From contig JAUYBE010000016.1 of the NCBI GenBank assembly GCA_030693235.1, positions 35,917-99,916 on the forward strand: DNA of 64,000 nt. The letters run 5' to 3'. Made by a program: the position numbers and the translations under genes. The notes below the pieces were generated by a model, which saw nothing but the letters and a program-made list of their open reading frames with translations, searched no databases and was not told the origin of the DNA. Of the stretch, positions 2,849 through 56,846 are shown one piece after another (within the stretch, counting starts at the first letter, position 1; the number at the start of each line of letters is the position of its first letter). The stretch is from a bacterium. GTDB lineage: Bacteria > Patescibacteriota > Minisyncoccia > UBA6257 > UBA9933.

Positions 2849-4314
2849 TCACCCGCTTAAAAGAACTGCTTTTCCAAAACCGCGGCGCTAAACAAACAAT
2901 CGTAAAAAATGTTTTTTGGCTAAGCGTCGGACAAATTGGGAGCCGCCTGATAAGAGCGGCTATTATAATTTACGCGGCGCGGATTTTAGGCGCGGCTGAA
3001 TACGGAATTTTTTCCTATATTATAGGATTAGCGGGGTTTTTCACGATTTTCGCGGACCTGGGCATAAGCCCGCTAATGACGCGCGAAATCGCCAGCCACC
3101 CGGAAAAACGTTCAATCTATTTTGCCAACGCTCTGCGGATCAAAGCCGTCTTAATTTCCATTACCGCCGCCTTGATTGTTTTTGTCGCCCCGAAATTTTC
3201 AAACATTGAAGAAGCGATTGCTTTACTGCCATTTGTCGCTCTGCTTGTTATTTTTGATAATTTACGGGATTTTATTTTCGCTTATTTCCGAGGAATTGAA
3301 AAGATGGAACGAGAAGCTTTTCTGACGGTGATTATGAACGCGACAATCGCTTTAACCGGTTTTATAATTTTGTATTTCTATAAAACCACCGGCGCTTTGC
3401 TGTTTTCATATATCGCCAGCGTGGCCATTTTAAGCATTGTCTCTTTTTATTTCATTAAAGATTTAATCAAGGGCATATTTAAAAATTTTGACAAAATGAT
3501 TTTTAAACAATTCATCCGCGATTGCTGGCCATTAGCTTTTACGGGATTATTCGGAATTTTTATGCTGAATATTGATATTGTAATGCTCGGCTGGTGGCGG
3601 ACGCCGGAAGAAATCGGCTATTATTCAGCCAGCCAGCGCATTGTCCAGATACTTTATACCTTACCGGCAATACTCGCCGGCGCGGCCTTTCCGGCGATGA
3701 CGCGTTTTATCAAACAAAACGAATTGATCCGAGCGCGTAATTTAAACGAAAAATCAATGACTTTTTTATATCTTATCGCCGTTCCTTTGGCGATTGGAGG
3801 AGTTATTTTAAGCAGTCCTCTTATAGAATTTATTTTCGGAAAAGCGTATTTACCGGCGGCCATATCGTTTCAAATATTAATTACTACCGTACTTATACAA
3901 TTCCCGGGCGCCATTTTCAGCAATTTAATAATGGCGCACAATCAACAAAAAAAATTCATTAAATATGTGGCTATCGGCTCATTTAGTAATGTGTTTTTCA
4001 ACACTTTGCTTATCCCTTTGTATGGCATTAGCGGCTCGGCAATCGCCACTCTTATTTCACAATTTGCTTATTTTGCGCCGGTTTGGGTTAAAATAAAACA
4101 AATTAGCGACTTTAAAACTATTCGCCACTTAAAAAAAATAATCGTTGCCGGAGTTGTTATGGGAATATTCGGATATTTCTTGAACCGCTTTTTCGGATTG
4201 AACGTCCTTATTAACATAATTCTCTCCGCCATAATTTATTTCGGAATTCTTTATTTACTCAAAGAAAATATTTTAGAAGAATTAAAATCGCTTTTATCAA
4301 GAGCCAAAAAATAA
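2845..4314 (+). CDS. polysaccharide biosynthesis protein, Wzx-type flippase (MOP superfamily)
   Basis: 489 aa polytopic membrane protein. N-terminus KNVFWLSVGQIGSRLIRAAIIIYAARILGAAEYG is typical of Wzx/RfbX. 4-nt overlap with the upstream transferase. Confidence 0.7.
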   Translation: MITRLKELLFQNRGAKQTIVKNVFWLSVGQIGSRLIRAAIIIYAARILGAAEYGIFSYIIGLAGFFTIFADLGISPLMTREIASHPEKRSIYFANALRIKAVLISITAALIVFVAPKFSNIEEAIALLPFVALLVIFDNLRDFIFAYFRGIEKMEREAFLTVIMNATIALTGFIILYFYKTTGALLFSYIASVAILSIVSFYFIKDLIKGIFKNFDKMIFKQFIRDCWPLAFTGLFGIFMLNIDIVMLGWWRTPEEIGYYSASQRIVQILYTLPAILAGAAFPAMTRFIKQNELIRARNLNEKSMTFLYLIAVPLAIGGVILSSPLIEFIFGKAYLPAAISFQILITTVLIQFPGAIFSNLIMAHNQQKKFIKYVAIGSFSNVFFNTLLIPLYGISGSAIATLISQFAYFAPVWVKIKQISDFKTIRHLKKIIVAGVVMGIFGYFLNRFFGLNVLINIILSAIIYFGILYLLKENILEELKSLLSRAKK

Positions 4315-5526
4315 CTTTTCTAATTTATTCAAAATCACGTCAACGGCTAAATTTTCAGAAGCATATTTAAAGCCGTTTTCTCCTATTTCTTTTAATCTAT
4401 CTTTCTCCGCGTAAATCTTGCGCGTTATTTTCTCGGCTTCTTCTAAATCATCTGACTTTACGGCATATCCGCATCCCACTTCATTTAATACGGCGAATCC
4501 ATCGCTTTCTTTATTTAAAAAAGCGATAATCGGCTTACCGGCCGCCATATACCCTAAAATTTTCCCCGGCACGAAAGATGTCTTGTTTTTGCTATTTAAA
4601 CAAACCATACCGACATCACTGTCTTTGACCAAATAAGGGTACTCCTCTTTTGAAACAAATGGCTTAATAACGATATTTTTAAGCGAATGTTTATTTATAA
4701 ATTCTTCAATTTTCGGCTTTTCGCTCCCGTCGCCGACCAATAAAAACACCAAATCCTTTAAATCCGCGACTTTTTGCGCAACTTCGCAAACAAATTCCAA
4801 ACCCTGAGCCGGCCCCATAATGCCGCCGAAAAGAATTATAAACTTGCTTTCTAATCCGTATTTTTTCCTAAAAGAAATATCTTTTGTTAAATTTTTGAAC
4901 GGTTCAATGTCAATCCAATTATGCAAAGTAACGATTTTTTCTTCGGGAACGCCTTTTTTCTCAATTAAAAATTTGCGGCCGCCTTCGGAATGAAAAGTGA
5001 TTTTGTCCGCTTCTTTGTAAACTTTTTTCTCTATCCGCTCGAAAAGCCAAACAGCCGGCTTATGTTTCCATCCCTTAAGCACCCCCAAATCAATGGCGTT
5101 CTGAGGAAAAATATCTTGAATGTTTAAAATGAATTTTGCGCCATAATAACGCTTAATCATTCCGCCGACCAAAGCCAATGGCAAGGGAGGACTATAGACA
5201 ATCACAACGTCCAGCTTTTCTCGAATATATTTTTTTATTTTAAAAAAAAACAAAAAAGGCAGAAAAAGCTGCGAAACGCCTCTGATGATAAAATTTACCT
5301 TTTTTAAAGGAAGCGTCTTAATTCTGATTATTTTAATGCCGGCCTCGTCGGAAAACAATTCAAATTTCTGGCCTTCCAACTCTTTCGGCAAATAATATTT
5401 TGGATAAGCAGTGGCGACCAAAATATTATGGCCGCGCTTTTTAAGGCCTTCGGCAAGCTCCTTCATTAAATTAGCGGCCGAAGAAACTTCCGGAGGATAA
5501 ACATCGGCGACAACAAGAATATTCAT
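4297..5526 (-). CDS. glycosyltransferase family 4 (GT-B, Glycos_transf_1)
   Basis: VFLLVGDGSEKPKIEEF...GKILGYMAAGKPIIAF, the typical GT4 C-terminal domain. Confidence 0.8.
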   Translation of the reverse strand: MNILVVADVYPPEVSSAANLMKELAEGLKKRGHNILVATAYPKYYLPKELEGQKFELFSDEAGIKIIRIKTLPLKKVNFIIRGVSQLFLPFLFFFKIKKYIREKLDVVIVYSPPLPLALVGGMIKRYYGAKFILNIQDIFPQNAIDLGVLKGWKHKPAVWLFERIEKKVYKEADKITFHSEGGRKFLIEKKGVPEEKIVTLHNWIDIEPFKNLTKDISFRKKYGLESKFIILFGGIMGPAQGLEFVCEVAQKVADLKDLVFLLVGDGSEKPKIEEFINKHSLKNIVIKPFVSKEEYPYLVKDSDVGMVCLNSKNKTSFVPGKILGYMAAGKPIIAFLNKESDGFAVLNEVGCGYAVKSDDLEEAEKITRKIYAEKDRLKEIGENGFKYASENLAVDVILNKLEKLFFGS

Positions 5527-6656
5527 TCGCGTCTTTTTTGAATAATTTTAGTTAAACCGACAATCAGCCGCAAAACCTTGCCGGAAACATTAGTATCGCG
5601 ATAATTTCTTGGCACATTGAATTTTTCGCCTGCTTTTAATTGTTTAGTTGTGATTTCAATTGCTTGTAAAATAATATTTTTATCCAAGCCCGACAAAATT
5701 AAAACTCCTTCATCAAACGCTTCGGGCCGTTCCGAACTTTCCCTTACCTGAACTGCCGGAAAACCTATAAGCGACGATTCTTCCTGAATCGTGCCGCTAT
5801 CGGACAAAACACAAAAAGCGTTTTTCTGCAAACTAACATAATCGAAATATCCGAATGGTTTATGAAAATTTATCAATTTATTCGCTTTAAACCCATATTC
5901 TTTTAATCTGCCGGCGGTTCTCGGATGAGTGCTTACCATAATCGGCATTTTATAAGTTTCCGCCACGGCATTTAATGAATTAATAAGTTTTTCCAAAGAT
6001 TCTTTTGCGTCCACGTTTTCTTCCCTGTGGATGCTAGCCACAAAATATTTTCCCTTGATTAATTTCAATTCATTCAAAATTTTTGATTTATCAATGTCTT
6101 TTTCATAGTAATCTAAAACTTCAGCCATTGGCGAACCGGTAACATAAATTGTTCCCGGATGAATACCTTCACGAATCAAATATATCCGGGCATTTTCGCT
6201 GTAGGGCAAATTTATATCGCTTATGTGGTCAACAATGCGGCGGTTTATTTCTTCCGGAACATTCTCGTCAAAACATCTGTTGCCGGCTTCCATATGGAAT
6301 ATCGGTATTTTCATTCTTTTAGCGATAATCGCCGAAAGAGCGCTGTTTGTATCTCCCAAAATCAAAATCGCGTCCGGCATTTCTTTTTGCAAAACTTCTT
6401 CGCTTTTTGAAATTATGTTGGCAATCTGGCCTCCCAAAGTTTCGGATTTCACTTCTAGAAAATAATCCGGCTTACGGATTTTTAGATTTTCAAAAAAAAC
6501 TTTATTTAATTCATAATCGTAGCTCTGCCCCGTATGGACCATAATATGATTTACATATTGGTCCAACTTCGCCAAAATCCGCGAAAGCCGAATAATTTCC
6601 GGCCGCGTGCCGAAAATCGTCATTATTTTCAATTTATTTATTTTATTGTTTTTCAT
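5523..6656 (-). CDS. UDP-N-acetylglucosamine 2-epimerase, non-hydrolysing (WecB/FnlC/CapG-like)
   Basis: FGTRPEIIRL, HTGQSYDYELNKVFFE, ILGDTNSALSAIIAKRMKIPIFHMEAGNRCFD, YVTGSPMAEVL. Confidence 0.85.
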   Translation of the reverse strand: MKNNKINKLKIMTIFGTRPEIIRLSRILAKLDQYVNHIMVHTGQSYDYELNKVFFENLKIRKPDYFLEVKSETLGGQIANIISKSEEVLQKEMPDAILILGDTNSALSAIIAKRMKIPIFHMEAGNRCFDENVPEEINRRIVDHISDINLPYSENARIYLIREGIHPGTIYVTGSPMAEVLDYYEKDIDKSKILNELKLIKGKYFVASIHREENVDAKESLEKLINSLNAVAETYKMPIMVSTHPRTAGRLKEYGFKANKLINFHKPFGYFDYVSLQKNAFCVLSDSGTIQEESSLIGFPAVQVRESSERPEAFDEGVLILSGLDKNIILQAIEITTKQLKAGEKFNVPRNYRDTNVSGKVLRLIVGLTKIIQKRRE

Positions 6657-12816: not shown

Positions 12817-13707
12817 TTATTGCTTTGATTTATTTTTTGCTTCATAAAGCTTCGCGTCAACCAAAAACCTGTACCAACATCCCTGTAAAAAATGAAATAT
12901 CAAGCCTTCTTTGCCGTCTAAAAACCCCAAACGGAAAAAATAGCGATAAATAAAATATAGAAAAACTCGTAAAAATTTAGGGAATTTATAATAAAAATTT
13001 CTTTTTTTACCGGCGCCGTAATCTTTTCTTAATACGTCTTCCGCTTCGCGGCTGGAATAATTATTATGCTTGGCAATCCAATCCGCTAACGGCTTTTTAT
13101 TATCGTCAATAAAATCATTTTTCAATTTTTCCGCTTTTCCTTCCGATAGAATAATGTGTTCATCCATCGCGCGTTGTTCCGAGCGCGCTTTGCCCTTCTT
13201 AAAAAGCCGCAAAATCCAAGTCGGATAATATCCGCCGTGTTTTATCCAGCGTCCCATAAAATATACGCGGCGTTTCATATAATAGCCGTTAATTTTTTGG
13301 ACATCCGATGTCCTAACATTAACGTCAATATTTGGGACATCTGATGTCCCCATATTGAACAATGTTTCGCCAATTTCTTGTTTAAGTTCTTCTGTCAAAT
13401 ATTCATCCGCGTCCAAGCGTAAAATCCACTCATTTTTAATTTTCAAATTATCCAGCGCCCAATTGAATTGCTGGGCCTGATTCTCAAATTTATGCTGAAC
13501 TACCTTCACAGACCCACGCTGACTGTCCGCGTTGGTCCGCGTTAAGTCCGCGTTAGTCAGCGCTTTGGCGATTTCCAAAGTTTTATCAGTGGAATAAGAA
13601 TCAACAACAAAAATCTCATCCGCCCAATCAGCGATATTTTTCATTAACCGCTCAATATGAATTTCTTCGTTGTAAGTTAAAATTATTATTGAAAGAGGAA
13701 TTTTCAT
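12817..13707 (-). CDS. glycosyltransferase family 2 carrying two in-frame repeat insertions
   Basis: IIILTYNEEIHIERLMKNIADWADEIFVVDSYSTDKT...RLDADEYL (DxD). Repeat family 2 at 13299-13350 encodes TSDVPNIDVNVRTSDVQ. Repeat family 3 at 13521-13563 encodes LTRTNADSQRGSV. Confidence 0.8.
   Translation of the reverse strand: MKIPLSIIILTYNEEIHIERLMKNIADWADEIFVVDSYSTDKTLEIAKALTNADLTRTNADSQRGSVKVVQHKFENQAQQFNWALDNLKIKNEWILRLDADEYLTEELKQEIGETLFNMGTSDVPNIDVNVRTSDVQKINGYYMKRRVYFMGRWIKHGGYYPTWILRLFKKGKARSEQRAMDEHIILSEGKAEKLKNDFIDDNKKPLADWIAKHNNYSSREAEDVLRKDYGAGKKRNFYYKFPKFLRVFLYFIYRYFFRLGFLDGKEGLIFHFLQGCWYRFLVDAKLYEAKNKSKQ
13299..13350. repeat. twin-palindrome element, family 2 (GGACATCCGATGTCC ... GGGACATCTGATGTCCC), in-frame in GT2
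   Basis: Two near-identical 15-17 nt perfect palindromes separated by taacattaacgtcaatattt. A second copy lies at 30949-30999. Confidence 0.7.
13521..13563. repeat. GTCCGCG/GCGGACT-type oligomer repeat, family 3, in-frame in GT2
   Basis: gactgtccgcgttggtccgcgttaagtccgcgttagtcagcgc. Related runs lie at 32521-32622, 33015-33060, 34072-34155, 39381-39462 and 47111-47152. Confidence 0.6.
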
Positions 13708-31827: not shown

Positions 31828-32394
31828 TTACTGATTTAATATCGCTTTCACCCTCTCATCTTCCGGCCAGTATTTAAGAATTTTTTCGCCGATTTTCCGC
31901 GTGTTTTCCTCGTCGCCTCTTAAACGGTATAGATCAAATAAATTATAAAGAACCGGCGGGAGTTTCGGACCATAAATCAAGGCCTCGCGATAATATTCTT
32001 CTGATTTTAGAAAATCGTTTTCATTACCTGATTTCTCCCATAAAAAGAAATATATCTGAGCCAAAATAAGGAGATGCCTTGTTTCATCTTTTCTCATTTT
32101 TGGCTCTAAATATTCAACTAAATAACGCGAGGCAATTTCTGGATTTTTAGGATTAGCCACCGCATTGACTAAATTATTTCCCAAAAACCTTGCCGCCTCG
32201 TAATCGCCAATCGGCGAATAAAAACCGAAAAGCTTGTCAAAAACTTTCTTAAAGTCTTCCGGGGTTTTCAGAGACGGCATTTGGTAAGCTGATTTTATAT
32301 AAAGTTGAGCCTTTTTAAAAGGCAAAATAGAACCAAAATAGATTGCGAATAAAACAATGACAATGACTATGACAATGATAATTTTTTTAATCAT
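31828..32394 (-). CDS. hypothetical membrane-anchored helical-repeat protein
   Basis: N-terminal TM (IIIVIVIVIVLFAIYFG), then helical TPR-like repeats. Confidence 0.35.
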   Translation of the reverse strand: MIKKIIIVIVIVIVLFAIYFGSILPFKKAQLYIKSAYQMPSLKTPEDFKKVFDKLFGFYSPIGDYEAARFLGNNLVNAVANPKNPEIASRYLVEYLEPKMRKDETRHLLILAQIYFFLWEKSGNENDFLKSEEYYREALIYGPKLPPVLYNLFDLYRLRGDEENTRKIGEKILKYWPEDERVKAILNQ

Positions 32395-34322
32395 ATACGA
32401 ATATCTGCTCTTAATTTATAGGTCGCAAATGCCAAAAACAGAAACAAATTAATATAAAGCGGCAAAATTTCAAATAAAACAATGCCTTGAATAAGATAAG
32501 CAACGGGCAAAGCGAATATTAACGCGGACTCAAGCGGACTTAAAAAAACGGACTTGGCGGACTTGGGCGTTAACGCGGACTGATGCTGACCTAAAACGGA
32601 CTTAGCGGACGAGGCGGACTGAGATAATAGACCCGGGGCATAAATTATTCTTTCTATTTGAACGTCATTTTTTTGACCAAAATTAACTAATAAAGCCAAT
32701 TGATAAGGCAATCCCCTTAAATAGTGCCAAATCTGTTTCTTTTCGTTTCTCCCTAAAAAGGGAAGTGATTTTAATTCTAAAATAATTTTATTCTCAATAA
32801 TAAAATCAGGTTTATAAACACCAACCTTTTTGTTGTTATACATAACATCAAGAGGTTTTTCTCTTTCAAAAATAATACCTCTTTTATTAAATTCTTCTTC
32901 CAAAGCATTCTGATAAATAAACTCTTTATGTCCTAGACCGAGTTGTTTCTTAACATCAAAGATCGCCCCTCTTATTTTATAAGTTATATCCTCGTATAAT
33001 AATTTGGAATTATTGTCCGCCATAGTCCGTGTTTTATCAAAGTCCGCTAAAGTCCGCGTCTTGAAAAGAAGTTGCCAATAAAACACTCCGAAAATGCTCA
33101 AAAAACTTAATAATCCAAGAATGCCGGTTTCGGCCAAATAGTCAAAATAAACGCTGTGCGCTCGGTCAAACCAGGCGCCAAAACCAGATGAAGGAACAAA
33201 ATATTCCGTGTTAAAATGCCGGTCAAAAACTTGTAAGAAATTCTCCGGGCCCCAGCCCAAAAGCGGTCGTTCTTTCCAGCCGTCAATGGCAATTTCCCAC
33301 ATAATTGTCCGGTGCTGAAAAGTTTCTGCCGAAAAAGAAATGTCAAAAAGTCGCGAACCGGGAATAGATTTCACAAAAGGAGTGTCTTTAAAATAAACCA
33401 TTGCGCCAACTCCTAAAATTAAAATAATTGTTAAAGCCAAAAGATGTTTCCGCCATTTCTTTTGTTGATAAACAAAATAAAAGACACCGCCAATAATCGC
33501 GGCAATTAAACCAAGAAAAGCGCCGCGGGTTGCCGCCAACCAGAAGAAGATAAAGAAAAAAATTATCAGGCCGATAAGTAACATAAATTTCTTATCCGTA
33601 TTAATCCGCGTCAATAAAAGATAACCAGCATAAAACAAAGCAAAAATTAAATAGGTGGCAGTATAAGCCGGGTTGCCTAAGGAGCCGGCAAAACGGAAAT
33701 GAGGGTCTTTAAGGGATCCGCCGATAAAACCCTTAAAGGTTTGAAAATAGGGTCCTCCTCGGCCGGTTATTTCTCTAATCTCAAAACCACTTTCTGTCCG
33801 GACGCTCATTTCCGCGTCAATATATTTTAAATGGGCGCCGATTCCGTAAAAAATTACCAAAACCGCGGCTAAAATTGAAATCCAAAATAGTTTTTTCCAA
33901 TCTTTTTCTTCCCGAAACAAAATTACCAGAAGCAAAAAGAAAATCCCAAGATAAAGTATCTGTAAACCGCCTTCCCCTCTTTCAAAATTGGACCAAAAGG
34001 ACATTGCCGGGTCAACGCCGAAAAAACAAGCAAGAAGAAATATCATGACAAAAGCGAAGACCGCCCAAACCAGCGCAGACTTACGCAGACTTAACGCAGG
34101 CTCACACAGAAAATTCCGCGTAGTTCCGCGTGTTTGTCCGCGTAGTTCCGCGTTTTGGAAAAGCAGTCCCAACAGAAAAAATATTAATGCCAAACTCACA
34201 CTTGTTCTAAAAAAAACATATTTACCGACGATAAAAGGAAAAAGCGTAGAAGTAGAAACAATAACAACGCTAAATGGAACAAGATAAAGAAAAAATTTGG
34301 AAAGTTTGAAGTAATTTATCAT
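32391..34322 (-). CDS. O-antigen ligase-like polytopic membrane protein with an internal GxxExxY module and in-frame family-3 repeat insertions
   Basis: About 12 TM helices and a Wzy_C/O-antigen-ligase-like core (aa ~60-420). Aa ~445-545 FDVKKQLGLGHKEFIYQNALEEEFNKRGIIFEREKPLDVMYNNKKVGVYKPDFIIENKIILELKS is the GxxExxY protein-family signature. Repeat-encoded peptides lie at aa ~56-83, ~421-436 and ~567-600. A C-terminal TM helix follows. Confidence 0.55.
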   Translation of the reverse strand: MINYFKLSKFFLYLVPFSVVIVSTSTLFPFIVGKYVFFRTSVSLALIFFLLGLLFQNAELRGQTRGTTRNFLCEPALSLRKSALVWAVFAFVMIFLLACFFGVDPAMSFWSNFERGEGGLQILYLGIFFLLLVILFREEKDWKKLFWISILAAVLVIFYGIGAHLKYIDAEMSVRTESGFEIREITGRGGPYFQTFKGFIGGSLKDPHFRFAGSLGNPAYTATYLIFALFYAGYLLLTRINTDKKFMLLIGLIIFFFIFFWLAATRGAFLGLIAAIIGGVFYFVYQQKKWRKHLLALTIILILGVGAMVYFKDTPFVKSIPGSRLFDISFSAETFQHRTIMWEIAIDGWKERPLLGWGPENFLQVFDRHFNTEYFVPSSGFGAWFDRAHSVYFDYLAETGILGLLSFLSIFGVFYWQLLFKTRTLADFDKTRTMADNNSKLLYEDITYKIRGAIFDVKKQLGLGHKEFIYQNALEEEFNKRGIIFEREKPLDVMYNNKKVGVYKPDFIIENKIILELKSLPFLGRNEKKQIWHYLRGLPYQLALLVNFGQKNDVQIERIIYAPGLLSQSASSAKSVLGQHQSALTPKSAKSVFLSPLESALIFALPVAYLIQGIVLFEILPLYINLFLFLAFATYKLRADIRI

Positions 34323-37149: not shown

Positions 37150-37215
37150 GGAGTGAGGCGGTGTAGATTAGGTGTTAGGTGATAGGTGTTAGAAAAAAAT
37201 TACCCTAAAAACTAA
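37150..37215. repeat. heptamer-array element, family 4 (GGTGTTA array + CTAAAAAC array)
   Basis: ttaggtgttaggtgataggtgttag-aaaaaaattac-cctaaaaactaaaaactaa. Full copies lie at 49892-49960 and 56683-56750. Confidence 0.55.
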
Positions 37216-37332
37216 AAACTAATAAAGATTCAGCCTCACTTCTGAACCTTTTACAAAATTTTAATCAAAAACACTGTCCTGTCAACTACTTATTAATAAT
37301 GATAACGAATGGATTTAACTTTGGTTTCTCGG

Positions 37333-38160
37333 TTACGGCGACCATTTTGACGCTCCGAAGATAATCATTGCCAGAATCAAAAACATCGTGATGTTTCTTA
37401 AAACTATCCGGCGGTTGATGGTGCCGCTTAAATGATGAACGATAAAATCCTCCAAAATCAGCGCGATGAGCAGCATCAAAGAAGCGGCGTTAAAAGAACG
37501 GAACGGCAAAAAACCAATAACCCAAAGGAATTGAAGAGACAAAAAAGCCGAACCGCTGGCCATTAGATTTACTTTTTGATTTCCGAGCGGAGCTGAGATT
37601 GCTTCGGCTCCGCCTCGCAATGACATAAATAAAAATTCTTTAAAAAGAAAGAAGGTCGCCGAAAATGCCGCCGAAGATTTAACCAGAAACCAAAACGGCT
37701 GCTCAAAATTATTAAAACTGAAAAAATAAACAAAAACCGTTAAAAGCAAAAGACTGTTTAAAAGATAATATAATGGTTCACGCCGGATAAAAATCAAATC
37801 CTTGATTCCCAGGAGAAGGAAGAAGAGGAAGGAGAAGAAAATAACAATGACTATTGACCATTGACTATTAACTATTGACAAATTAACGGCTAATAAAGAA
37901 GCGGCGAGAAGCGTTAAAAAAGAGACGAGAAATTGGCGGGTGTTGAAAAAAGAACGGAAATAGAAATAAAAGGAGACAGTCAAGAACACGATGACTATTG
38001 ACCATTGACTATTGACAAGATAAAGAAGAACGGAAAAAACCGTTGCCTTAAGCGCCAATATTAAGAGTAAGCCCTTGGGGGTCTCTAAAACCGATTTTAA
38101 TTTTTTTAACATTTTTAAACTCGCCTTTAATGATTTTATCTGCCAATTGGTCAAGAACAA
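37333..38160 (-). CDS. hypothetical polytopic membrane protein with internal duplication and family-1 half-element
   Basis: [10 protein letters not shown] occurs twice (DNA 37850-37880 and 37990-38030). [10 protein letters not shown] is encoded by half-palindrome 37596-37624. The annotated start overlaps the clpB 3' end, so the start is uncertain. Confidence 0.35.
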
Positions 38161-40762
38161 GTTTTTGAATCAGTCGTTTGACCGGTCGAGCGCCGTATTC
38201 CGGGTCAAAACCGGCCTCAGCCAAATGCTTTTTCAAAGAATTTTCAAAAACCTGCTTAATGTTTTTCTTAGCCAATCTTTCTTTCACCTGCTCCAATTGA
38301 ATCTCCACGATTTTTTCCATTTCTTTCGCCGTTAAAGAATTAAAAATTATAATCTCGTCCAAGCGATTTAAAAATTCCGGCCGGAAAGTTTCTTTAAGTT
38401 CTGACATTACTTTCTCATGAAAAATTTTAGCCTTGTCGCTCGCGCCTTCTTTTTCTTTATCTGTCGGCGATTCGAATCCAATCCGGGAAATTTCTTTAAA
38501 ATATTCACCGCCGACATTGGAAGTCAGAATAATAACGGCGTTTTTAAAATTAACCAGTTTCCCCTTGCCGTCTGTTAAGCGACCGTTATCCAAAATCTGA
38601 AGCAGGATATTAAAAACTTCCGGATGAGCTTTTTCAATTTCATCAAAAAGAATTAAGCTGTAGGGCCTGTGCCGGACAACTTCGGTTAATTGGCCGCCCT
38701 CTTCGTGACCGACATAGCCTGGCGGCGAACCGATTAGCCGGCTGGTTGAATGCCTTTCCATATACTCGCTCATATCAATGCGAACCAGAGCTTTTTCATC
38801 GTTGAACATAAATTCCGCCAAAGCCCGAGCCAGTTCGGTTTTTCCCACGCCGGTCGGCCCCAAAAACATAAAAGAACCGAGGGGTTTGTCTTCTTCGGAT
38901 AACCCGGCGCGGCCTCGGCGCAACGCGTTGGCAACGGCTTTAATCGCCTCTTCTTGCCCAACCACTCGTTCGCTGAGCACTTCTTCTATTTTAGAAAATT
39001 TTTCCATTTCCGATTCAAGCATTTTTGAAACCGGAATGCCGGTCCATCGGGAAATCACCTCGGCAATATCTTCTTCATAAACCGCTTCTTTGATGAACCG
39101 TTCATCTAACTTTTGACTTTTGACTTTTGACTTTTGACTTTCTCCTGTGTATTTTTTTTCAAACGCCTTAAGCTCTCTTTCGGCCTGCGGCAATTCGCCG
39201 TAAACAATTCTCGCCACCCGTTCCAAACTTCCTTCGCGTTCGGCCATCTCGGCTTGATGGCGCAAGTCCTCAATTTTTTTTCGCAGATTATGAAGATGCT
39301 CAAAAGAAATTTTTTCCGCGTGCCACTTGGCGGAAAGTTCGTCGTTCTCTTCTTTTAATTTCGCCAGTTCTTTTTCAATCGCGGACTTACGCTGACTAAA
39401 CGCAGACTCACGCGGACTTTTTCTGCGTAGTTCCGCATCTTGTTCCGCGTAGTTCTGCGTCTCCGAAAGCAGAGCCTGGCGTTCAATTTCCAAACGGGTG
39501 ATTTCCCGACGTAATTTATCAATTTCCATGGGCAGACTTTCTGTTTCCAATCGCCTGGCCGCCGCGGCTTCGTCAATTAAATCAACCGCTTTGTCCGGCA
39601 AAAAACGGTTGCTGATATAGCGGGCCGAAAGATTAACCGCCGCGATTATCGCTTCATCGCTGATTCTGATGCCGTGATGCATTTCATATTTTTCTTTCAA
39701 GCCGCGCAAAATCGCGATTGAATCTTCAATTGAAGGTTCGTCAACCATAATCGGCGCGAACCGGCGTTCCAAAGCCGCGTCTTTTTCAATATAGCGCTGA
39801 TATTCTCTAATAGTGGTGGCGCCGATTGCCCTAAGTTCGCCGCGCGCCAAAGCCGGCTTCAATAAATTGGAAGCGTCAACCGCGCCTTCGGCGGCGCCGG
39901 CGCCGACAATCATATGAATCTCGTCAATAAAAAGAATATATTTGCCGGCGGCCTGCTGAATTTCTTTTATAAAAGCTTTTAATCGGTCTTCAAATTCGCC
40001 GCGGAATTTGGTGCCGGCAATCAAAGAACCCAAGTCAAGCATAATGATTTCCCGATTTTTCAAAGGCTCGGGAACGTCGCCGGAAATAATTCTTTGCGCC
40101 AAACCTTCAACAACGGCTGTTTTGCCGACGCCGGACTCTCCGATTAAAACCGGATTATTTTTGGTTCGGCGGGACAACACCTGAATCAACCGGCGAAGTT
40201 CTTCATTGCGGCCGATTACCGGGTCAAGTTTTCCGGCTCTCGCCTGTTCGGTTAAATTAACGGCGTATTTTTCCAGAACTTGAAATTTTGATTCCGGCAT
40301 TTCATCGGTAATCCGCATTGAACCTCTAAGACCGGCTAAAATTCTTAAAGCTATTTCCCTGCGCAAGCCGAATTCTTCAAGCAAACGGCTTACTTGCGAA
40401 TCAGATTCCAAAATCGCCAAAAGCAAGTGCTCGCAAGAAATGAATTCGTCTTTTTGATTGGTCGCGATTTTCGCCGCCTTGTCCAGCGCCTTCATTAATT
40501 CCTGGGAAAGATAAAGTTGGGCAAGTCCGCCGCCGCCGACAATTTTCGGCCCCTTTTTTAAAATTTCTTCAACGCGCCGGTTTAACGCTTCCAAATTAAC
40601 GCCGGCCTTGAGAAGAAGCGGCCGCACCAAAGAGCTTTCGTCAATTATCAAAGCCGCCAAAAGATGAACAATTTTAAATTCGCCGTGATTTTCTTTGGCC
40701 GCGATTTCCTGGGCGTTTTGCAACGCCTCCTGAGCTTTAATTGTAAAACGATGAAAATTCAT
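38048..40762 (-). CDS. clpB: ClpB disaggregase (AAA+ chaperone, two NBDs) with repeat-encoded insertions in the M-domain region
   Basis: N-domain, GESGVGKT and GPTGVGKT Walker A motifs, 904 aa. Aa ~433-460 ([20 protein letters not shown]) is encoded by family-3 repeat 39381-39462. Aa ~541-551 ([11 protein letters not shown]) is encoded by the (ttttgac)4 array at 39108-39140. Confidence 0.9.
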
Positions 40763-40830: not shown

Positions 40831-42411
40831 ATGTCAAAACTATACCGTTTTTATGAAATAATTCCCGGCTCTTTGGCTTGGACAACGATTATTTTAATAT
40901 TTCTCCTTTCTTGGCTGGCGCCGGCGCTAACGGCGATTTTTATTATTCTTTTTGACATCTACTGGCTTCTTAAAACAATTTATCTTTCCTTCCATCTCCG
41001 CGCCACCTTTTCAAAAATGAGAGAAAATCTCAAAATTGATTGGTTGGAGAAACTCAAAAAATGTCATTGCGAGCGAAGCGAAGCAATCTCAATAACAAAA
41101 GGATTGCTTCGTCGCTCCGCTCCTCGCAATGACAGTATTGCTTCGGGTAATTCGGGTCGCAATTGGTCGAACGTTTACCACCTCATCATCCTCCCGATGT
41201 ATAAAGAACCGTACGAAGTTGTTAAAGAATCTTTTGAAAGCTTGATTAAAACAAATTATCCGAAAGATAAATTTATCGTGGTTTTGGCGACTGAAGAACA
41301 AGGAGGCGAGCCTGCTCAAGAAACCGCCAAAAAAATCCAGCAAGAATTCGGCAATAAATTTTTTAAATTTTTAATCGCGACTCATCCGGCAAATATAGCC
41401 AACGAGCTTCCGGGCAAAGGATCCAACCAAGCCTGGGCAACTAAAGAGGTGAAAAGATTAATTATTGACCCCTTAAAAATTCCCTATGAAAATATCCTGA
41501 CTTCGGTTTTTGATATTGACACCCAAGTCTTGCCGGATTATTTCAGCCGCCTGACTTATGTTTTTTTAACTTGCGAAAATCCCCAACGCTCCAGCTTCCA
41601 GCCGATTCCTTTTTTCACCAATAATATTTTCCAAGCGCCGGCTTTGGGAAGAGTCATCGCTTTCTCCTGCACTTTTTGGCAAATGATGCAGCAATCCCGT
41701 CCCGAACGCTTAACCACTTTTTCTTCCCATTCGATGCCTTTTAAAGCGCTTGTTGAAATCGGCTTTTGGAATACCGATATCGTTTCAGAAGACTCCCGGA
41801 TTTTTTGGCAATGCTATTTTCATTATAACGCCGACTGGCGGGTTGAACCGCTTTTTTATCCGGTTTCAATGGATGCCAATGTGACGCCGAAATTCTGGCA
41901 AACAATGCTCAATTTATACAAACAACAACGCCGCTGGGGCTGGGGCTGCGAAAATATTCCTTATATGCTGGACGGTTTTAGAAAAAATAAAAAGATCTCT
42001 TTTAGAAAAAAAATTCACTGGGCGTTTAACGCGATTGAAGGATTTCATTCGTGGGCGACCAATGCTTTGATAATTTTCGCTTTGGGCTGGCTGCCTTTAA
42101 TGCTGGGCGGAGCTGATTTTAATTTTACTCTTCTTTCTTATAGCTTGCCTCAAATCACTCACTGGATTATGACTTTGGCGATGTTTGGAATTATCACTTC
42201 GGCGATTTTAAGCGTTATTTTGCTTCCGCCAAAACCCGATTGGTTTAAAAAACGGCATTACTTTTTTTATTTCTTGCAATGGGCATTGATGCCGATTACC
42301 TTGATAATTTTCGGCGCTTTTCCGGGGCTGGAAGCCCAAACCCGCTTAATGCTCGGCGGCAAATTCCGCTTGGGTTTTTGGGTAACGCCGAAACAGAGAC
42401 TTAACTCATAG
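40831..42411 (+). CDS. membrane GT2-family processive glycosyltransferase (QxxRW motif) carrying a family-1 palindromic element in-frame
   Basis: Polytopic. LIILPMYKEPYEV...FIVVLATEE, QQRRWGWG (QxxRW). KCHCERSEAISITKGLLRRSAPRNDSIASG is encoded by element 41063-41147. Confidence 0.55.
   Translation: MSKLYRFYEIIPGSLAWTTIILIFLLSWLAPALTAIFIILFDIYWLLKTIYLSFHLRATFSKMRENLKIDWLEKLKKCHCERSEAISITKGLLRRSAPRNDSIASGNSGRNWSNVYHLIILPMYKEPYEVVKESFESLIKTNYPKDKFIVVLATEEQGGEPAQETAKKIQQEFGNKFFKFLIATHPANIANELPGKGSNQAWATKEVKRLIIDPLKIPYENILTSVFDIDTQVLPDYFSRLTYVFLTCENPQRSSFQPIPFFTNNIFQAPALGRVIAFSCTFWQMMQQSRPERLTTFSSHSMPFKALVEIGFWNTDIVSEDSRIFWQCYFHYNADWRVEPLFYPVSMDANVTPKFWQTMLNLYKQQRRWGWGCENIPYMLDGFRKNKKISFRKKIHWAFNAIEGFHSWATNALIIFALGWLPLMLGGADFNFTLLSYSLPQITHWIMTLAMFGIITSAILSVILLPPKPDWFKKRHYFFYFLQWALMPITLIIFGAFPGLEAQTRLMLGGKFRLGFWVTPKQRLNS
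41063..41147. repeat. palindromic dispersed element, family 1, copy C (simplest full hairpin copy)
   Basis: tgtcattgcgagcgaagcgaagcaatctc - aataacaaaa - ggattgcttcgtcgctccgctcctcgcaatgaca. Confidence 0.75.
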
Positions 42412-46859: not shown

Positions 46860-47645
46860 CTAATCTTTATTTTTGAAGCCGTCAAGAATTCTTTTTAATT
46901 CTTCGGGCAGTTCGGCCGCTATTTTTATTCGTCTACCCGGGGAAATATTAAATTCCAAAGATTCGGCGTGAAGAAACTGGCGCTTTAAGCCGAATGAATT
47001 TTCTTTCGGTCCGTAAAGCGAATCACCGACAATCGGATAACCGATTGAAGCTAAATGAACTCTAATTTGATGGGTCCGACCGGTTTTTGGCATTACTTTC
47101 AGCAAGCTGAAAGTCGCTGACTGACGCGGACTTAACGCCGACAAACGCGGAATTTCAATATATTTAATGACTCTATATTCTGTAATCGCCTCTTTTTCCA
47201 GCCTGCCCTTCCAAACGGTTCTTTTGATAGCGCCTGATTTAATACTGATTGGTTTTTTAATAACGCCGGTTTTCGGTTCAAGTTTTCCCCAAACCAAAGC
47301 CAGATAAGTTTTTTTTATTTGACTGCCTTGTCTCCCTTCGGGAGATCTCCCGTAGGGAGAAAAAAGATTTTTTAAATATTCAAAATATTTCTGATTGCGC
47401 GCGACCAACAATACGCCGGAGGTATCTTTATCTAAACGATGAACAATGCCCGGCCGAGTTTGAGGTTCATCGCCGACATTTTTAACTTCGGGATATTTTT
47501 CCGATAGCCAATCAACTAAGGTAAAATCAGGTTTTAGGTTTTGGGTTTTAGGTTTTAGATTAATTGAGTGGACCAAGATGCCGGCCGGCTTATAAACCGC
47601 CAAGAAATTTTTGTCTTTGTAAATGACGCGGATTTGATTTTGCAT
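46860..47645 (-). CDS. RluA-family 23S rRNA/tRNA pseudouridine synthase with repeat-encoded insertions
   Basis: HRLDKDTSGVLLVARN catalytic-Asp motif. NLKPKTQNLKP is encoded by heptamer array 47520-47560. LSALSPRQSATFS is encoded by family-3 repeat 47111-47152. Confidence 0.8.
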   Translation of the reverse strand: MQNQIRVIYKDKNFLAVYKPAGILVHSINLKPKTQNLKPDFTLVDWLSEKYPEVKNVGDEPQTRPGIVHRLDKDTSGVLLVARNQKYFEYLKNLFSPYGRSPEGRQGSQIKKTYLALVWGKLEPKTGVIKKPISIKSGAIKRTVWKGRLEKEAITEYRVIKYIEIPRLSALSPRQSATFSLLKVMPKTGRTHQIRVHLASIGYPIVGDSLYGPKENSFGLKRQFLHAESLEFNISPGRRIKIAAELPEELKRILDGFKNKD

Positions 47646-49890: not shown

Positions 49891-49891
49891 A

Positions 49892-49960
49892 GTTTTTAGG
49901 TTTTAGTTTTTAGGTTTTAGTAAATTTCTAACACCTAACACCTAACACCTAACACCTAAA
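49892..49960. repeat. heptamer-array element, family 4, filling the entire parA-parB spacer
   Basis: (tttttagg/ttttag)x4 - taaatttc - (taacacc)x4. The two halves can pair as an imperfect hairpin, with GUUUUAG against CUAACAC. Confidence 0.6.
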
Positions 49961-49963
49961 TAA

Positions 49964-50947
49964 ATGTTAGGCAAAGGACTGGAATCTTTAATTCCAAAAA
50001 AACAAAACATTCAGTCTCCTCAACAAGGCCAACAAATCGACTCCAACGAAAAGCCGGCGGAGGGCGCTGATGCTTTTCGCGCAGCAACTCCTGTAAATAA
50101 GCCGGCGGCCAAAGACGCCATCTTTTATATTGAAACGGAAAAAATCAAACCCAATCCCCATCAACCACGCCGAGATTTCAACGAGGAATCTTTAAAAGAA
50201 TTGGCAAACTCCATTCGAGAACATGGTATTCTTCAACCCCTGATCGTTTCCAAAATTGAAAAAGAAACCGAATTCGGAACTAAAGTAGAATATCAATTAA
50301 TCGCTGGCGAAAGACGATTAAGAGCTTCTCAAATAGCGGGATTGGAAAGTGTGCCGGTAATTATTAAAAATATCGTTAAAGATGCCGAGCATCTGGAAAT
50401 GGCGATTGTTGAAAATCTGCAACGCGCTGATTTAAATCCGGTTGAAACCGCCCGGGCTTACGCCAAACTGCAAGATGTTTTCGGCTTGACCCAAAGAGAG
50501 GTCGCTCAACGCTTGGGCAAAAGCCGGGAAACCATTGCCAATACTTTAAGGCTTTTAAATCTGCCGACGGAAATTCAAGAAGCGGTTGCTAAAAATCAAA
50601 TCAATGAAAGCCAGGCGCGGTTGCTTTTGACGATTGGCGACCAAATTCAACAACAAAATCTTTTCAATGAAATTATTTCCAATAATTTAAGCGTCCGGGA
50701 ATTGCGACAGCGAATTCGGAAAACTTCACCCGTCATTGCGAGCGCAAGCGAAGCAATCTCGCCTATTGTTAATCCTGAAATCCTTAATTTTCAAGAACAG
50801 CTCACCGAACTTTTAGGAGCTAAAGTGAAAATTAAACCCTTCGGCAATGCTCAGGGCAAAGGCGGAGAAATTATTATTGATTTTTATTCGGCGGAAGAAA
50901 TTGAAGGAATAATAAAAAAACTTTCTCCGGAAAATAATTTGGAATAG
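49964..50947 (+). CDS. parB: ParB/Spo0J partition protein carrying a family-1 half-element in-frame
   Basis: LQPLIV...LIAGERRLRASQIAG, HTH. SPVIASASEAISPI is encoded by half-element 50732-50760. Confidence 0.85.
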   Translation: MLGKGLESLIPKKQNIQSPQQGQQIDSNEKPAEGADAFRAATPVNKPAAKDAIFYIETEKIKPNPHQPRRDFNEESLKELANSIREHGILQPLIVSKIEKETEFGTKVEYQLIAGERRLRASQIAGLESVPVIIKNIVKDAEHLEMAIVENLQRADLNPVETARAYAKLQDVFGLTQREVAQRLGKSRETIANTLRLLNLPTEIQEAVAKNQINESQARLLLTIGDQIQQQNLFNEIISNNLSVRELRQRIRKTSPVIASASEAISPIVNPEILNFQEQLTELLGAKVKIKPFGNAQGKGGEIIIDFYSAEEIEGIIKKLSPENNLE

Positions 50948-53264: not shown

Positions 53265-54788
53265 TTATTTCACGTAAAATTTCTTTTTCATTTCTTCTTC
53301 TATTCCTGATTCAAATTCTTCTTTCTTTCCCCTGCTAATTTTGGCTAATTTTTCAAGCTCAATATCCGACAACTTCCCTAAATCCTGAATCCTGAATTCT
53401 AAATTCTCCTTCGTATTCTTTTCGGGATTTTCAATAACTTCGTCCAACAAAACGGACAAAATCCGACCCACTCGCGGGCCCGGCTCTATGCCCAAAATTT
53501 TCATCACATCCTCTCCGTTGACTTTCAGCATTTTCGGCGAAATCGGGTCTTGCTTCACTTTTTCAATCATAAAAAGCAAGTGCCGCAGTTTATATGGCAC
53601 GGCTTTGGGCACACCCGAACCGATTCTATCCGCTTCCCTGATTTTTATAAAATCATCGACATTTTCCGGACCGACGCGCGCCAAAAATCTGCGCACTCCG
53701 GCTTCGGAGACTTCGCCGACATTGTAATAAAAAAGGTGATAACGAACCAAATGAATAATTTTTTCCGCCAAATCTTTCGGGAAACGAAGCCTATCTAAAA
53801 TTTCGGCGGCTAATTTTGCGCTGACTATTTCGTGATTGTAAAAAGTGCAATCAAGCCCTTCGCCGACTTTGGTCGCCGGTTTGCCGATATCGTGCAAAAG
53901 CGCCGCCAATCGAATTTCCAAAGAATAATTTTTCTTGGCGGCGTAATCCAGCGCTTTTAAATTATGTTCCCAGACCGTGTAAATATGATGCTTATTCTGG
54001 CCGACGCCGATGCCGTCGCGGAGTTCCGGCGCGATAAACCGCAACAAACCCAAATCTTCCAATAATTGAATTCCTGAAACCGCCTTTTCAGCCATTAAAA
54101 TTTTAATAAACTCATCGCGGATTCTTTCTTTGGCAATCATTTCCAACAAACCGGCTTGTTTTTTGACCGCCACGGCGGTCTTTCCTTGTATTGAAAAATC
54201 CAGTTCCGTCGCAAATCGAACGGCTCGCATCAACCTTAAAGCGTCTTCATTAAAACGATCTTCGGGATTGCCGACGGCTCGAATTATTTTATTTTTAATA
54301 TCATCTTGGCCGTTAAAGGGGTCTACTAATTCAGGTTTTAGGTTTTGGGTGTTAGGTTTTAGAGCGATAGCGTTGATAGTAAAATCCCGTCTGCCTAAAT
54401 CTTCTTCAATTGTTTCGGCGAATTTAATTTCATCGGGGTGGCGCTTGTCAGTATATTTTCCTTCTATTCTGAATGTTGTAATTTCTATGATTTTTAACGA
54501 TTCATTATCAGAGCCGGTCTTAACACCAACGGTGCCGAATTTATTTTCATAAACGGTGGCAGGCTTGTCCGCCGTAGCTCCGGCGAAGGTGGAAAAAATC
54601 TTTTGAATTTCTTCGGGTTTTGCGTCGGTGGCAACATCCCAATCTTTCGGTTCCCGCCCCATTAATAAATCGCGAACGCAGCCGCCAACCAAATAAGCAT
54701 TATAGCCGCTAGCCACTAGTTTATTAGCCACTAAAATAATTTCTTCGGGAATACTTGCCCTGAATTTTACTGAAGGGTTGAAATTCAT
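53265..54788 (-). CDS. cca: CCA tRNA nucleotidyltransferase (Pol beta head + HD domain) with heptamer-array-encoded insertion
   Basis: GGCVRDLLMGREPKDWDVATDAKPEEI, RRDFTINA, HD motif LHDIGKP. ALKPNTQNLKPELV is encoded by array 54332-54366. Confidence 0.8.
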   Translation of the reverse strand: MNFNPSVKFRASIPEEIILVANKLVASGYNAYLVGGCVRDLLMGREPKDWDVATDAKPEEIQKIFSTFAGATADKPATVYENKFGTVGVKTGSDNESLKIIEITTFRIEGKYTDKRHPDEIKFAETIEEDLGRRDFTINAIALKPNTQNLKPELVDPFNGQDDIKNKIIRAVGNPEDRFNEDALRLMRAVRFATELDFSIQGKTAVAVKKQAGLLEMIAKERIRDEFIKILMAEKAVSGIQLLEDLGLLRFIAPELRDGIGVGQNKHHIYTVWEHNLKALDYAAKKNYSLEIRLAALLHDIGKPATKVGEGLDCTFYNHEIVSAKLAAEILDRLRFPKDLAEKIIHLVRYHLFYYNVGEVSEAGVRRFLARVGPENVDDFIKIREADRIGSGVPKAVPYKLRHLLFMIEKVKQDPISPKMLKVNGEDVMKILGIEPGPRVGRILSVLLDEVIENPEKNTKENLEFRIQDLGKLSDIELEKLAKISRGKKEEFESGIEEEMKKKFYVK

Positions 54789-56398: not shown

Positions 56399-56674
56399 TT
56401 ACTTCACCGCGTCTTTAAGCGCTTTGCCTGCTTTAAATTTCGGCTTTATTGAAGCCGCGATTTGAATTTTTTCTCCGGTCTTGGGGTTAATTCCCATCCG
56501 AGCCGCTCTTTTCATCACTTTGAAAGCGCCGAAACCGGTGATCGCCACTTCTTCGCCGCGAGCCAATGTTTTGGTAATTGTATCAAAAAACGCTTCAACG
56601 GTTTCGGCGGCTTGTTTTTTCACTTCTATGCCGGTGGCTTTCATTATTGCCTCGATAAATTCTGCTTTGTTCAT
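56399..56674 (-). CDS. hup: HU-family DNA-binding protein
   Basis: MNKAEFIEAIMKATG...AITGFGAFKVMKRAARMGINPKTGEKIQIAASIKPKFKAGKALKDAV. Confidence 0.85.
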   Translation of the reverse strand: MNKAEFIEAIMKATGIEVKKQAAETVEAFFDTITKTLARGEEVAITGFGAFKVMKRAARMGINPKTGEKIQIAASIKPKFKAGKALKDAVK

Positions 56675-56682
56675 TTAATAAT

Positions 56683-56750
56683 TAGGTGTTAGGTGTTGGG
56701 TGTTGGGTGTTAGAATTTACTAAAACCTAAAAACTATAACCTAAAACCTT
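56683..56750. repeat. heptamer-array element, family 4 (inverse orientation of the parA-parB copy)
   Basis: (aggtgtt/gggtgtt)x4 - agaatttac - taaaacctaaaaactataacctaaaacc. Followed at 56805-56835 by a gtcaa(n) array. Confidence 0.6.
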
Positions 56751-56846
56751 ACTATCCTCGACCTTTGGTTTAAGTATGTCAAATTATATAGGAAAAGTCT
56801 ACCTTTTTATTGTCAATCGTCAACAGTCAAAAGTCAATAGTTTTCA

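Follow-up and report, generated by a model that had tools for sequence, protein, structure and literature searches.

The 64,000-nt stretch analysed here (contig JAUYBE010000016.1, positions 35,917 to 99,916; hereafter the window) comes from a Wolfebacteria-like Patescibacterium and contains an intact clpB gene, in which two repeat segments are translated in frame within the coiled-coil M-domain of the encoded ClpB disaggregase. Two repeat-encoded peptides in this domain had been proposed in a first-pass annotation of the DNA, and their presence is borne out by the uninterrupted open reading frame (ORF), the arrays detected by Tandem Repeats Finder (TRF), and the alignment to the ClpB structure 1QVR. 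Site 1 is a hairpin built of ~10-nt units, and site 2 is a tandem array of heptamers. We consider it moderately probable that both are selfish or neutral modules that are simply translated, and that they are tolerated because the loops of the M-domain coiled coil in which they lie are exposed. Site 1 would then represent the arms of a cassette without its ORF, and site 2 a heptamer module resembling the short tandemly repeated repetitive (STRR) sequences. The gene and its segments are as follows, with positions counted from the start of the window.

38048..40762, minus strand: clpB, single open and intact ORF of 904 aa, host of both repeat segments
39421..39462, minus strand: site 1, 5' arm in gene sense, four ~10-nt units (ACGCAGAACT ACGCGGAACA AGATGCGGAACT ACGCAGAAAA) with the core GC[AG]GA, encoding 14 aa
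39380..39418, minus strand: site 1, 3' arm in gene sense, four ~10-11-nt units (AGTCCGCGTG AGTCTGCGTTT AGTCAGCGTA AGTCCGCG) with the core TC[CTA]GC, encoding 13 aa
39109..39141, minus strand: site 2, (GTCAAAA)4.7 in gene sense, 100% matches in TRF, 10 aa, in the linker from helix L3 to nucleotide-binding domain 1 (NBD1)

Two translated segments in the ClpB M-domain

The window has a G+C content of 38%, and its ClpB shows the two AAA+ modules, the Clp_N domain, and the coiled-coil M-domain in NBD1 that characterize ClpB/Hsp104 disaggregases. It can be aligned to the ClpB structures 1QVR and 6DJU, with the M-domain corresponding to residues 384-581 of 1QVR (T. thermophilus ClpB). The NCBIfam model TIGR03346 (ClpB) matches aa 6-894 with 1182 bits, slightly short of the cutoff of 1232, a case in which repeat modules may have lengthened a protein and lowered its family score. 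The names of the 120 ClpB homologues retrieved refer to ClpB or Wolfebacteria, and their precomputed Pfam set comprises Clp_N, AAA, AAA_lid_9, AAA_2, and ClpB_D2-small. The database sequences most similar to the window ClpB, with at most 91% identity, are ClpBs from Candidatus Wolfebacteria and other members of the Patescibacteria, and an exact look-up found no identical sequence in public assemblies.

Site 1 (39380-39462) is a bipartite hairpin of ~82 bp, in which four ~10-nt GCNGA units are followed, in gene sense, by four inverted TCNGC units. TRF reports it as two abutting period-10 arrays, 39380-39418 (CGCGGACTWA x3.8) and 39421-39462 (TTCCGCGTAG-type x3.8). Of its first-pass description as a translated, low-complexity GCGGACT run, the translated repeat stands, while the low complexity gives way to a structured, two-part element. 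The arms are imperfect reverse complements (~8/10 bases per unit) and thus have the arrangement of the terminal inverted repeats of a miniature inverted-repeat transposable element (MITE). The sense-strand RNA is predicted to form a long hairpin with interruptions (-38.6 kcal/mol, z -4.25; antisense -31.9 kcal/mol). No Rfam family was found for site 1, as only tRNAs were detected in the window at gathering thresholds. Two of the three sense frames are open and none of the three antisense frames. In the clpB frame, the arms together encode 27 aa, and the site 1 peptide comprises aa 434-461 plus flank.

Compared with L001, a relative with 89% identity (87% at the nucleotide level) that has no site 1 element, 87 nt stand in place of 33 ancestral nt (NEGGKNKRLNE), a net gain of 18 aa. 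Because host sequence is replaced and the site 1 junctions show neither the target-site duplication expected of a MITE nor any other direct repeat, this is not a clean insertion. Both full copies of the decamer element in the window, in clpB and in the wzy gene described below, are preceded by ancestral CTGCTTT, which represents a microhomology and not a duplication. The element may have entered the L1-L2 turn, at the tip of motif 1, by patch replacement and not by cut-and-paste, and would since have undergone neutral decay with the frame kept. In L001 itself, clpB (3730-6386) was called as two ORFs of 143 and 726 aa, with the break in the N-terminal part.

Site 2 reads (ACTTTTG)4.7 on the plus strand (TRF, period 7). 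It had been annotated as a perfect (TTTTGAC)4 array at 39108-39140; the array is indeed perfect, but the position was one base off (39109-39141) and four copies are an undercount (4.7). All three sense frames are open and all three antisense frames are closed. Folding of the array gave no secondary structure, and a hairpin reading of this site was rejected. The corresponding peptide comprises aa 541-552.

The alignment places site 1 between ~424 and ~428 of 1QVR, in the L1-L2 turn, and site 2 between ~513 and 514, after L3. An AlphaFold (AF2) model built from 65 sequences, with a mean predicted local distance difference test score (pLDDT) of 72, contains the helices L1 (412-441), L2 (450-510), and L3 (513-539), a loop at 442-449, and a disordered segment (540-558). 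Residues encoded by the site 1 arms extend both motif 1 helices, L1 and L2, in this model, and the pLDDT falls below 50 at 441-449 and 540-553, the loop and the heptamer peptide, which are the lowest-confidence stretches of the M-domain. The model thus fits the tolerance of both segments at exposed M-domain positions and agrees with their earlier placement in a region permissive for length variation. ClpB and Hsp104 are regulated via motif 1 and motif 2 contacts, and the modelled positions make effects of the inserts on M-domain regulation possible.

Copies of the site 1 hairpin and GxxExxY cassettes

Site 1 is lineage-specific. In a comparative alignment of the 120 homologues and E. coli ClpB, the 18 extra residues are confined to the window, the 91%-identical P0001 cluster, and P0005, where they have diverged. 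At the DNA level, the element is found in the window, in three independent assemblies (L002, L085, and L086), and in L083. The short ancestral turn NEGGKNKRLNE, without the element, is present in P0115 (89%), P0002 (83%), and nearly all other homologues, and the element is absent also from E. coli. Other lineages carry different repeats at the same two places. P0003 and P0004 have longer, different repeat peptides at the site 1 point of the alignment, which we assign to the decamer family. In the clpB of L084 (P0015), site 2 is occupied by a decamer hairpin belonging to the site 1 family, inside which a second hairpin is nested, and site 1 by a heptamer array (AAGCGGC/AAGCGAA). The motif 1 tip and the L3 linker of ClpB have repeatedly accepted 8-30 extra residues. 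When an nhmmer profile of the 82-bp element was searched against 82 related ClpB loci (1.4 Mb), it matched the window and the copy of its closest relative (L002) only, indicating that the exact unit sequence is lineage-specific and that relatives have variant units; L085 and L086, which carry the same element as the window, were fetched after this search.

The decamer family is also dispersed within the 64 kb of the window, with two full and two partial copies. Those outside clpB are the following.

34074..34166, minus strand: second full decamer hairpin, in the Wzy_C gene, aa 56-83, QNAELRGQTRGTTRNFLCEPALSLRKSA
13525..13565, minus strand: partial decamer array, four GCNGAC units and one inverted, in a GT2 glycosyltransferase gene (KALTNADLTRTNADSQR), E 1e-5
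47114..47155, minus strand: partial decamer array, 3'-arm-type units, in an rluA-like pseudouridine synthase gene (EIPRLSALSPRQSA), E 3e-6

The sharing of site 1 DNA with the O-antigen-ligase-like (Wzy) gene, first noticed at 34120-34160, extends over the longer copy at 34074-34166. The two full copies are 78.7% identical over 94 nt in blastn (E 5e-16), with a MAFFT column identity of 83%, and their flanks are unrelated. The hairpin of the Wzy copy is predicted at -43.4 kcal/mol (z -6.0), and the L085 clpB element also matches this copy. In the L084 Wzy orthologue, the loop matching window 34050-34160 contains a different repeat peptide (NNKYQPISTNINKYPSISISINQYLKNP) of the same length (28 aa). 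Two matches to ACGCGGAACTACGCGGA in viral contigs were discarded as single chance occurrences in high-GC phage genes and not arrays. All copies share one orientation relative to their host genes, which would be explained if only copies in a stop-free orientation and frame persist.

A longer form of the element, with the same kind of arms around an ORF, is found in the same Wzy gene.

32523..33060, minus strand: GxxExxY (PF13366/TIGR04256) segment, fused in frame in the Wzy gene (ORF 32391..34322)

This gene encodes an O-antigen-ligase-like membrane protein (Pfam Wzy_C) with a complete PF13366 domain at aa 445-559, in a loop. The segment is bracketed by a GCGGAC-unit arm on its 5' side (33060-33015) and a GTCCGC-unit arm on its 3' side (32625-32523). 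The Wzy orthologue of L084 has the GxxExxY fusion and arms as in the window, and a PF05635 intervening-sequence (IVS) protein gene adjoins the Wzy/GxxExxY gene there. In the closer orthologue in L085, the upstream GCGGA-unit arm is present, the ORF is absent, and the 3' arm is replaced by (GTCAATR)4, a heptamer array; for this last reason the arms-only site was rejected as a hairpin (z +1.2).

The association of such arms with GxxExxY ORFs recurs in other genomes. We inspected seven GxxExxY loci representing six independent contexts (the window, L084, L224, L225, L226, L230, and L231). Upstream of the ORF, 2-5 GCNGA units are present in 6/7 loci (none in L230) and TCNGC units in none of the seven; downstream, all seven have 2-6 TCNGC units, and GCNGA units are absent except in L226 (2). 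The background for these units is ~0.1-0.7 per 100 nt. Both arms are therefore present in 6/7 loci (window, L084, L224, L225, L226, and L231) and 5/6 independent contexts, with only the downstream arm in L230. In L224, from another organism of the candidate phyla radiation (CPR), lepA (3001-5238) is split in its G domain between RMIY and LNLIDTPGH and called as two genes. Its cassette consists of four GCGGAC units, the ORF, and four GTCCGC units, followed by an in-frame TAA. Cassettes can thus split genes, and this lepA could be a pseudogene, a split gene, or recoded or processed. Five database GxxExxY matches are fused to a GTP_EFTU fragment.

The full form of the cassette would be a GxxExxY ORF, with a PD-(D/E)XK fold, framed by these inverted arms. 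In the clpB element, both arms occur in cassette order and orientation, and the ORF is lacking. As it shares the arm order, orientation, and unit type, we infer from these sequence features that site 1 is a derivative or relative of such cassettes, standing to them as a MITE to its parent element.

Heptamer modules and competing explanations

Site 2 of the window is longer than that of L085, the nearest relative, by 24 nt (8 aa) of inserted AGTCAAA units, in diverged surroundings. The linker at this position is Lys-rich and hypervariable in all Wolfebacteria ClpBs, ranging from 20 to 52 aa. At 30 aa, the window linker equals those of L003 and L007 and is no longer than the family norm. Judged by the alignment, site 2 is an array within a permissive linker and not an obvious lengthening, so that the earlier statement that clpB was colonized twice is only partly apt for site 2. 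The module, (GTCAAAA)4GT of 30 nt, may have landed in, or homogenized, an A-rich, Lys-coding linker.

Heptamer arrays are abundant in the window and beyond. At a TRF score of at least 40, the window contains 13 period-7 arrays, compared to none in each of 30 first-order Markov simulations, and 43 TRF arrays of all periods compared to a simulated mean of 4.5. Site 2 thus resembles the STRR-like heptanucleotide simple sequence repeats (SSRs), which are period-7 arrays present many times in a genome. Its own family has one other member in the window.

56812..56842, plus strand: the one further array of the GTCAAAA family in the window (GTCAATC GTCAACA GTCAAAA GTCAATA), located between genes, immediately 3' of rny, with 87% identity over 31 nt (E 6e-6)

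The stop codon of rny closely precedes this array, which lies upstream of the ORF 56399..56674 and on the minus strand reads TTGACT TTTGACTG TTGACGA TTGACAA, giving four -35-like TTGAC motifs. Outside the window, at least 120 metagenome contigs contain (GTCAAAA)3G, with G+C contents of 31 to 66% and arrays of 3-9 copies. Long ORFs that span the array read it in the sense orientation and in frame, and the confirmed hosts include PheT, LeuRS, RecG, LigA, LepA, LigD, and a CheA-like kinase; in LepA (L151), the insertion point is the loop that holds the GxxExxY cassette in L224. Other heptamers are frequent in the contigs with a GTCAAAA array, whose TRF rows are dominated by period 7 (280, compared with 16 for period 6 and 68 for period 8). 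The array was also found in 15 viral contigs. In ~9 unrelated metagenome contigs, GTCAAAA arrays are adjoined by CGCTNCGCGG motifs, which are similar to the element in the GT2_3 gene described below.

The repeats could have grown in situ by slippage and local duplication in a permissive linker, independently at each locus and with no transfer between loci. Both sites are length-variable in all relatives, the ancestral sequence of site 2 was A-rich and Lys-coding (L001 has a single TCAAAAG there), and period-7 SSRs are over-represented in bacteria generally (PMC4692102). Even so, we regard growth in place as improbable. The clpB and Wzy copies of the decamer element (82-94 nt) share their unit order and bipartite layout in spite of unrelated flanks, and the same arm arrays surround GxxExxY ORFs in other genomes. 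The rluA-like (47529-47558) and cca (54333-54362) genes share a 30-nt CTAAAAC module with the same ends and the same internal imperfection, a T-to-C change that removes an in-frame TAA, which points to copying and not to independent slippage. These two coding modules correspond to single arms of intergenic composites of (TTAGGTG)n and (CTAAAAC)n, which lie between co-directional genes at 37168-37222, 49891-49959, and 56682-56749, one of them exactly between parA and parB; the composites fold as heptamer-built hairpins, two of the three with z about -3.1 and -3.7.

Further evidence against independent growth is the identity of arrays in diverged orthologues. L047 carries an identical stretch of 37 nt (AAGTCAAAA x4 GTTAGA; window 39105-39141, L047 11563-11599), with an equal copy number, in a clpB whose nucleotide identity to that of the window near site 2 is only 77%, although closer relatives lack the array. 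Similarly, two LigA orthologues that are 71% identical (L091 and L123) share a perfect 41-nt stretch around the same array. Under neutral vertical descent, such identity would be expected with a probability of ~1e-4 or less. This could reflect a parallel gain where an A-rich landing site is present, the transfer of a patch, or a DNA-level constraint or homogenization. The slippage-driven length polymorphism that had been anticipated, of the kind by which a phase-variable contingency locus switches frame, was not detected: every full-length P0001 cluster member has 896 aa, and the copy number at site 2 does not vary between the window and L047, in a comparison that included no same-species sequences carrying the array. 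Truncated ClpBs of the P0001 cluster were rejected as evidence for slippage, as the L086 contig has many split genes typical of sequencing error.

A second alternative is that the segments are selected, lineage-specific extensions of the M-domain, which for example retune DnaK docking or the contacts that repress the M-domain. This would be compatible with the regulatory role of motif 1 and motif 2 contacts, with the extension of L1 and L2 through arm-encoded residues in the AF2 model, and with a site 1 segment that is in frame and of equal length in the window, L085, and L083. On the other hand, relatives at 89% and 83% identity do without the segment, the two loops hold unrelated repeat peptides in other lineages, and model confidence is low in both segments. 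Between the window and L085, the 87 nt of site 1 differ by three nonsynonymous and four synonymous changes. Selection for these peptides therefore seems about as improbable as growth in place.

Less probable still is that the site 1 hairpin acts within the clpB mRNA, whether as an RNase III site, as a thermosensor, or by pausing translation, or that it is removed from the transcript. The sense hairpin is the more stable one, a related cassette in L224 lepA has an in-frame TAA after its 3' arm, and an ORF inside a long stem recalls 23S rRNA intervening sequences (PMC4990558). However, all clpB copies are in frame and stop-free, which removal from the transcript would not require, and the hairpin, although still found in L085 (z -3.7), has degenerated in L083 (z -1.0), arguing against a selected RNA structure, as does the missing Rfam match. 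An assembly or binning artefact has a negligible probability; repeats can attract misassembly, but site 1 recurs in three other independent assemblies (L002, L085, and L086), one of them a long-read-like contig, the site 2 array occurs in the unrelated assembly L047, and the ORF is intact across both sites.

Several observations weigh against our preferred reading of the segments as tolerated selfish or neutral modules. No target-site duplication, transposase, or other known mobility gene was demonstrated, and no recent movement or change in copy number was observed in a comparison that contained no same-species genomes. A 56-aa chimera of the element-encoded peptides retrieved no protein-database candidate sharing three words. 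The units of the clpB 3' half (GTTCCGCG on the plus strand) differ slightly from the cassette arm units (AGTCCGCG), and the cassette itself is known from the seven inspected GxxExxY loci in six independent contexts, one without the upstream arm. PF13366 is listed as being of unknown function, with many transfers (PMC3424549), and GxxExxY could be a passenger that targets pre-existing hairpins and not the engine moving them. Finally, neutral tolerance does not explain the perfect identity of site 2 between ClpBs that are 77% identical.

A more far-reaching proposal, which we put forward tentatively and hold to be rather unlikely as a whole, is that GxxExxY ORFs and inverted arrays of ~10-nt units constitute an undescribed class of CPR mobile cassettes. 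These would invade surface loops of housekeeping genes in frame, as in wzy and lepA, spawn ORF-less hairpins (clpB), and spread by microhomology-guided patch copying and not by transposition. Heptamer modules might share their landing sites and copying route, which would explain the identical arrays in diverged orthologues. In the library searched, in which few papers mention GxxExxY, we found no description of tandem-unit arms around such genes. The cassette link is a lead that could amount to more than a variant of known elements. If true, this would provide a handle on the large, uncharacterized GxxExxY/PF13366 family, as cargo or engine of a hairpin-armed cassette, and would imply that reduced genomes remodel essential proteins (ClpB, LepA, aminoacyl-tRNA synthetases) via short repeat modules.

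Repeats in neighbouring genes and comparison with known systems

The first-pass annotation had described the housekeeping genes of the window as widely invaded by short repeats. This is confirmed for cca and the rluA-like gene, and pth and gpmI exist with short arrays, but the claim is not confirmed for parB, since the nearest array (49928-49959) lies upstream of its ORF (49964..50947). Repeat-carrying genes in the window include cca, the rluA-like gene, GT2, asnB, GT2_3, and wzy. The window and L085 are syntenic, with 84-90% nucleotide identity in the best-conserved blocks and ~71-76% in the most diverged ones, and most indels of at least 9 nt between them are short palindromic or tandem modules. 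The GT2_3 gene (40831..42411, plus strand) contains, at 41063-41169, a 78-nt palindromic element encoding CHCERSEAIS...LLRRSAPRNDS that is absent from the L085 orthologue (526 vs. 499 aa). A 21-nt piece of this kind (CATTGCGAGGCGGAGCCGAAG) is found at 37602-37622, in the ORF downstream of clpB. This ORF (37333..38160, minus strand) encodes a hydrophobic protein of 275 aa (235 aa in L085), overlaps the 3' end of clpB by 113 nt, and contains two TGACTAT heptamer arrays, each encoding NSQWSIVI(V). In the rluA-like gene, the window has a 30-nt insert of two 15-nt mini-hairpins (TCTCCCTACGGGAGA TCTCCCGAAGGGAGA) at 47331-47360, and L085 has a different 30-nt insert (TCCGCCAAAGGCGGA TCCGTCTCTGGCGGA) at a different position (3903-3932). 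Two longer insertions are present in L085 and absent from the window: 744 nt with a LAGLIDADG_3-like ORF after rplS (L085 4975-5718, window ~46520), and 366 nt with an ORF of 115 aa (L085 13633-13998, window ~37128).

Among known systems, the GxxExxY cassette resembles the intervening sequences of 23S rRNA, in which a small ORF lies in the loop of a long inverted-repeat stem and which, as in the Coxiella IVS, are regarded as selfish (PMC4990558). The cassette differs in its protein-coding host gene, in its ORF family, and in showing no evidence of excision. Inteins and homing-endonuclease genes likewise place a nuclease-fold ORF in frame in conserved genes (as here in lepA and wzy) at recurring sites, but the cassette has no Hint or splicing domain, is flanked by repeat arrays, and has a counterpart in clpB without any ORF. 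TIGR-Tas arrays and CRISPR were dropped as candidates, given that the arrays have no spacers or associated genes and are intragenic.

For the heptamers, the STRR heptanucleotide tandem repeats reportedly described in cyanobacteria by Mazel in 1990 offer a parallel. The window arrays share with these and other heptanucleotide repeats the ~four units, the many families per genome, the excess of period 7, and the enrichment near ORF ends. They differ in their CPR host (not cyanobacteria or Xanthomonas) and in their AT-rich units without G-quadruplexes; unlike STRR sequences, half of them are translated inside genes, and the intergenic copies pair as heptamer-built hairpins. Heptamer SSRs are in general over-represented and little characterized (Rehm et al. 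2015, PMC4692102).

The decamer element can also be compared with MITEs and the REPIN/RAYT system. Repetitive extragenic palindromic (REP) sequences and their hairpin-forming doublets (REPINs) are 20-40-bp extragenic palindromes tagged by GTAG or CGTC and accompanied by a gene for a REP-associated tyrosine transposase (RAYT). GTAG occurs inside the decamer units (CGCGTAGTTCC), whereas the copies, in contrast to REPs, are mostly intragenic and translated. As in MITEs and the REPIN/RAYT system, an ORF-less two-arm element exists alongside a longer, ORF-carrying form (PMC10969869, PMC3116915, PMC3733652). The GxxExxY cassettes with the same kind of arms would correspond to the autonomous partner of a MITE, but they encode a PD-(D/E)XK-fold protein of unknown function instead of a known transposase of the DDE or Y1 (RAYT) type, and the decamer element lacks the target-site duplication of MITEs.

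By analogy of architecture, the closest precedent for site 1 is probably provided by the Rickettsia palindromic elements (RPEs), which are described as in-frame, translated, surface-located palindromes in Rickettsia genes (Ogata et al. 2000, 2002, via PMC10969869). Measured against that summary, site 1 is shorter (~82 bp vs. ~100-150 bp), its arms are tandem ~10-nt arrays, and it occurs in a Patescibacterium, replaces host sequence, and has arms that also bracket GxxExxY. The decamer element is multi-copy, has defined ends, forms a hairpin, and lies in frame in intact ORFs, with surface exposure predicted by the model. Like the RPEs as outlined there, it is thus a short dispersed palindrome that sits in frame in unrelated housekeeping genes and contributes an extra peptide at positions compatible with the fold.

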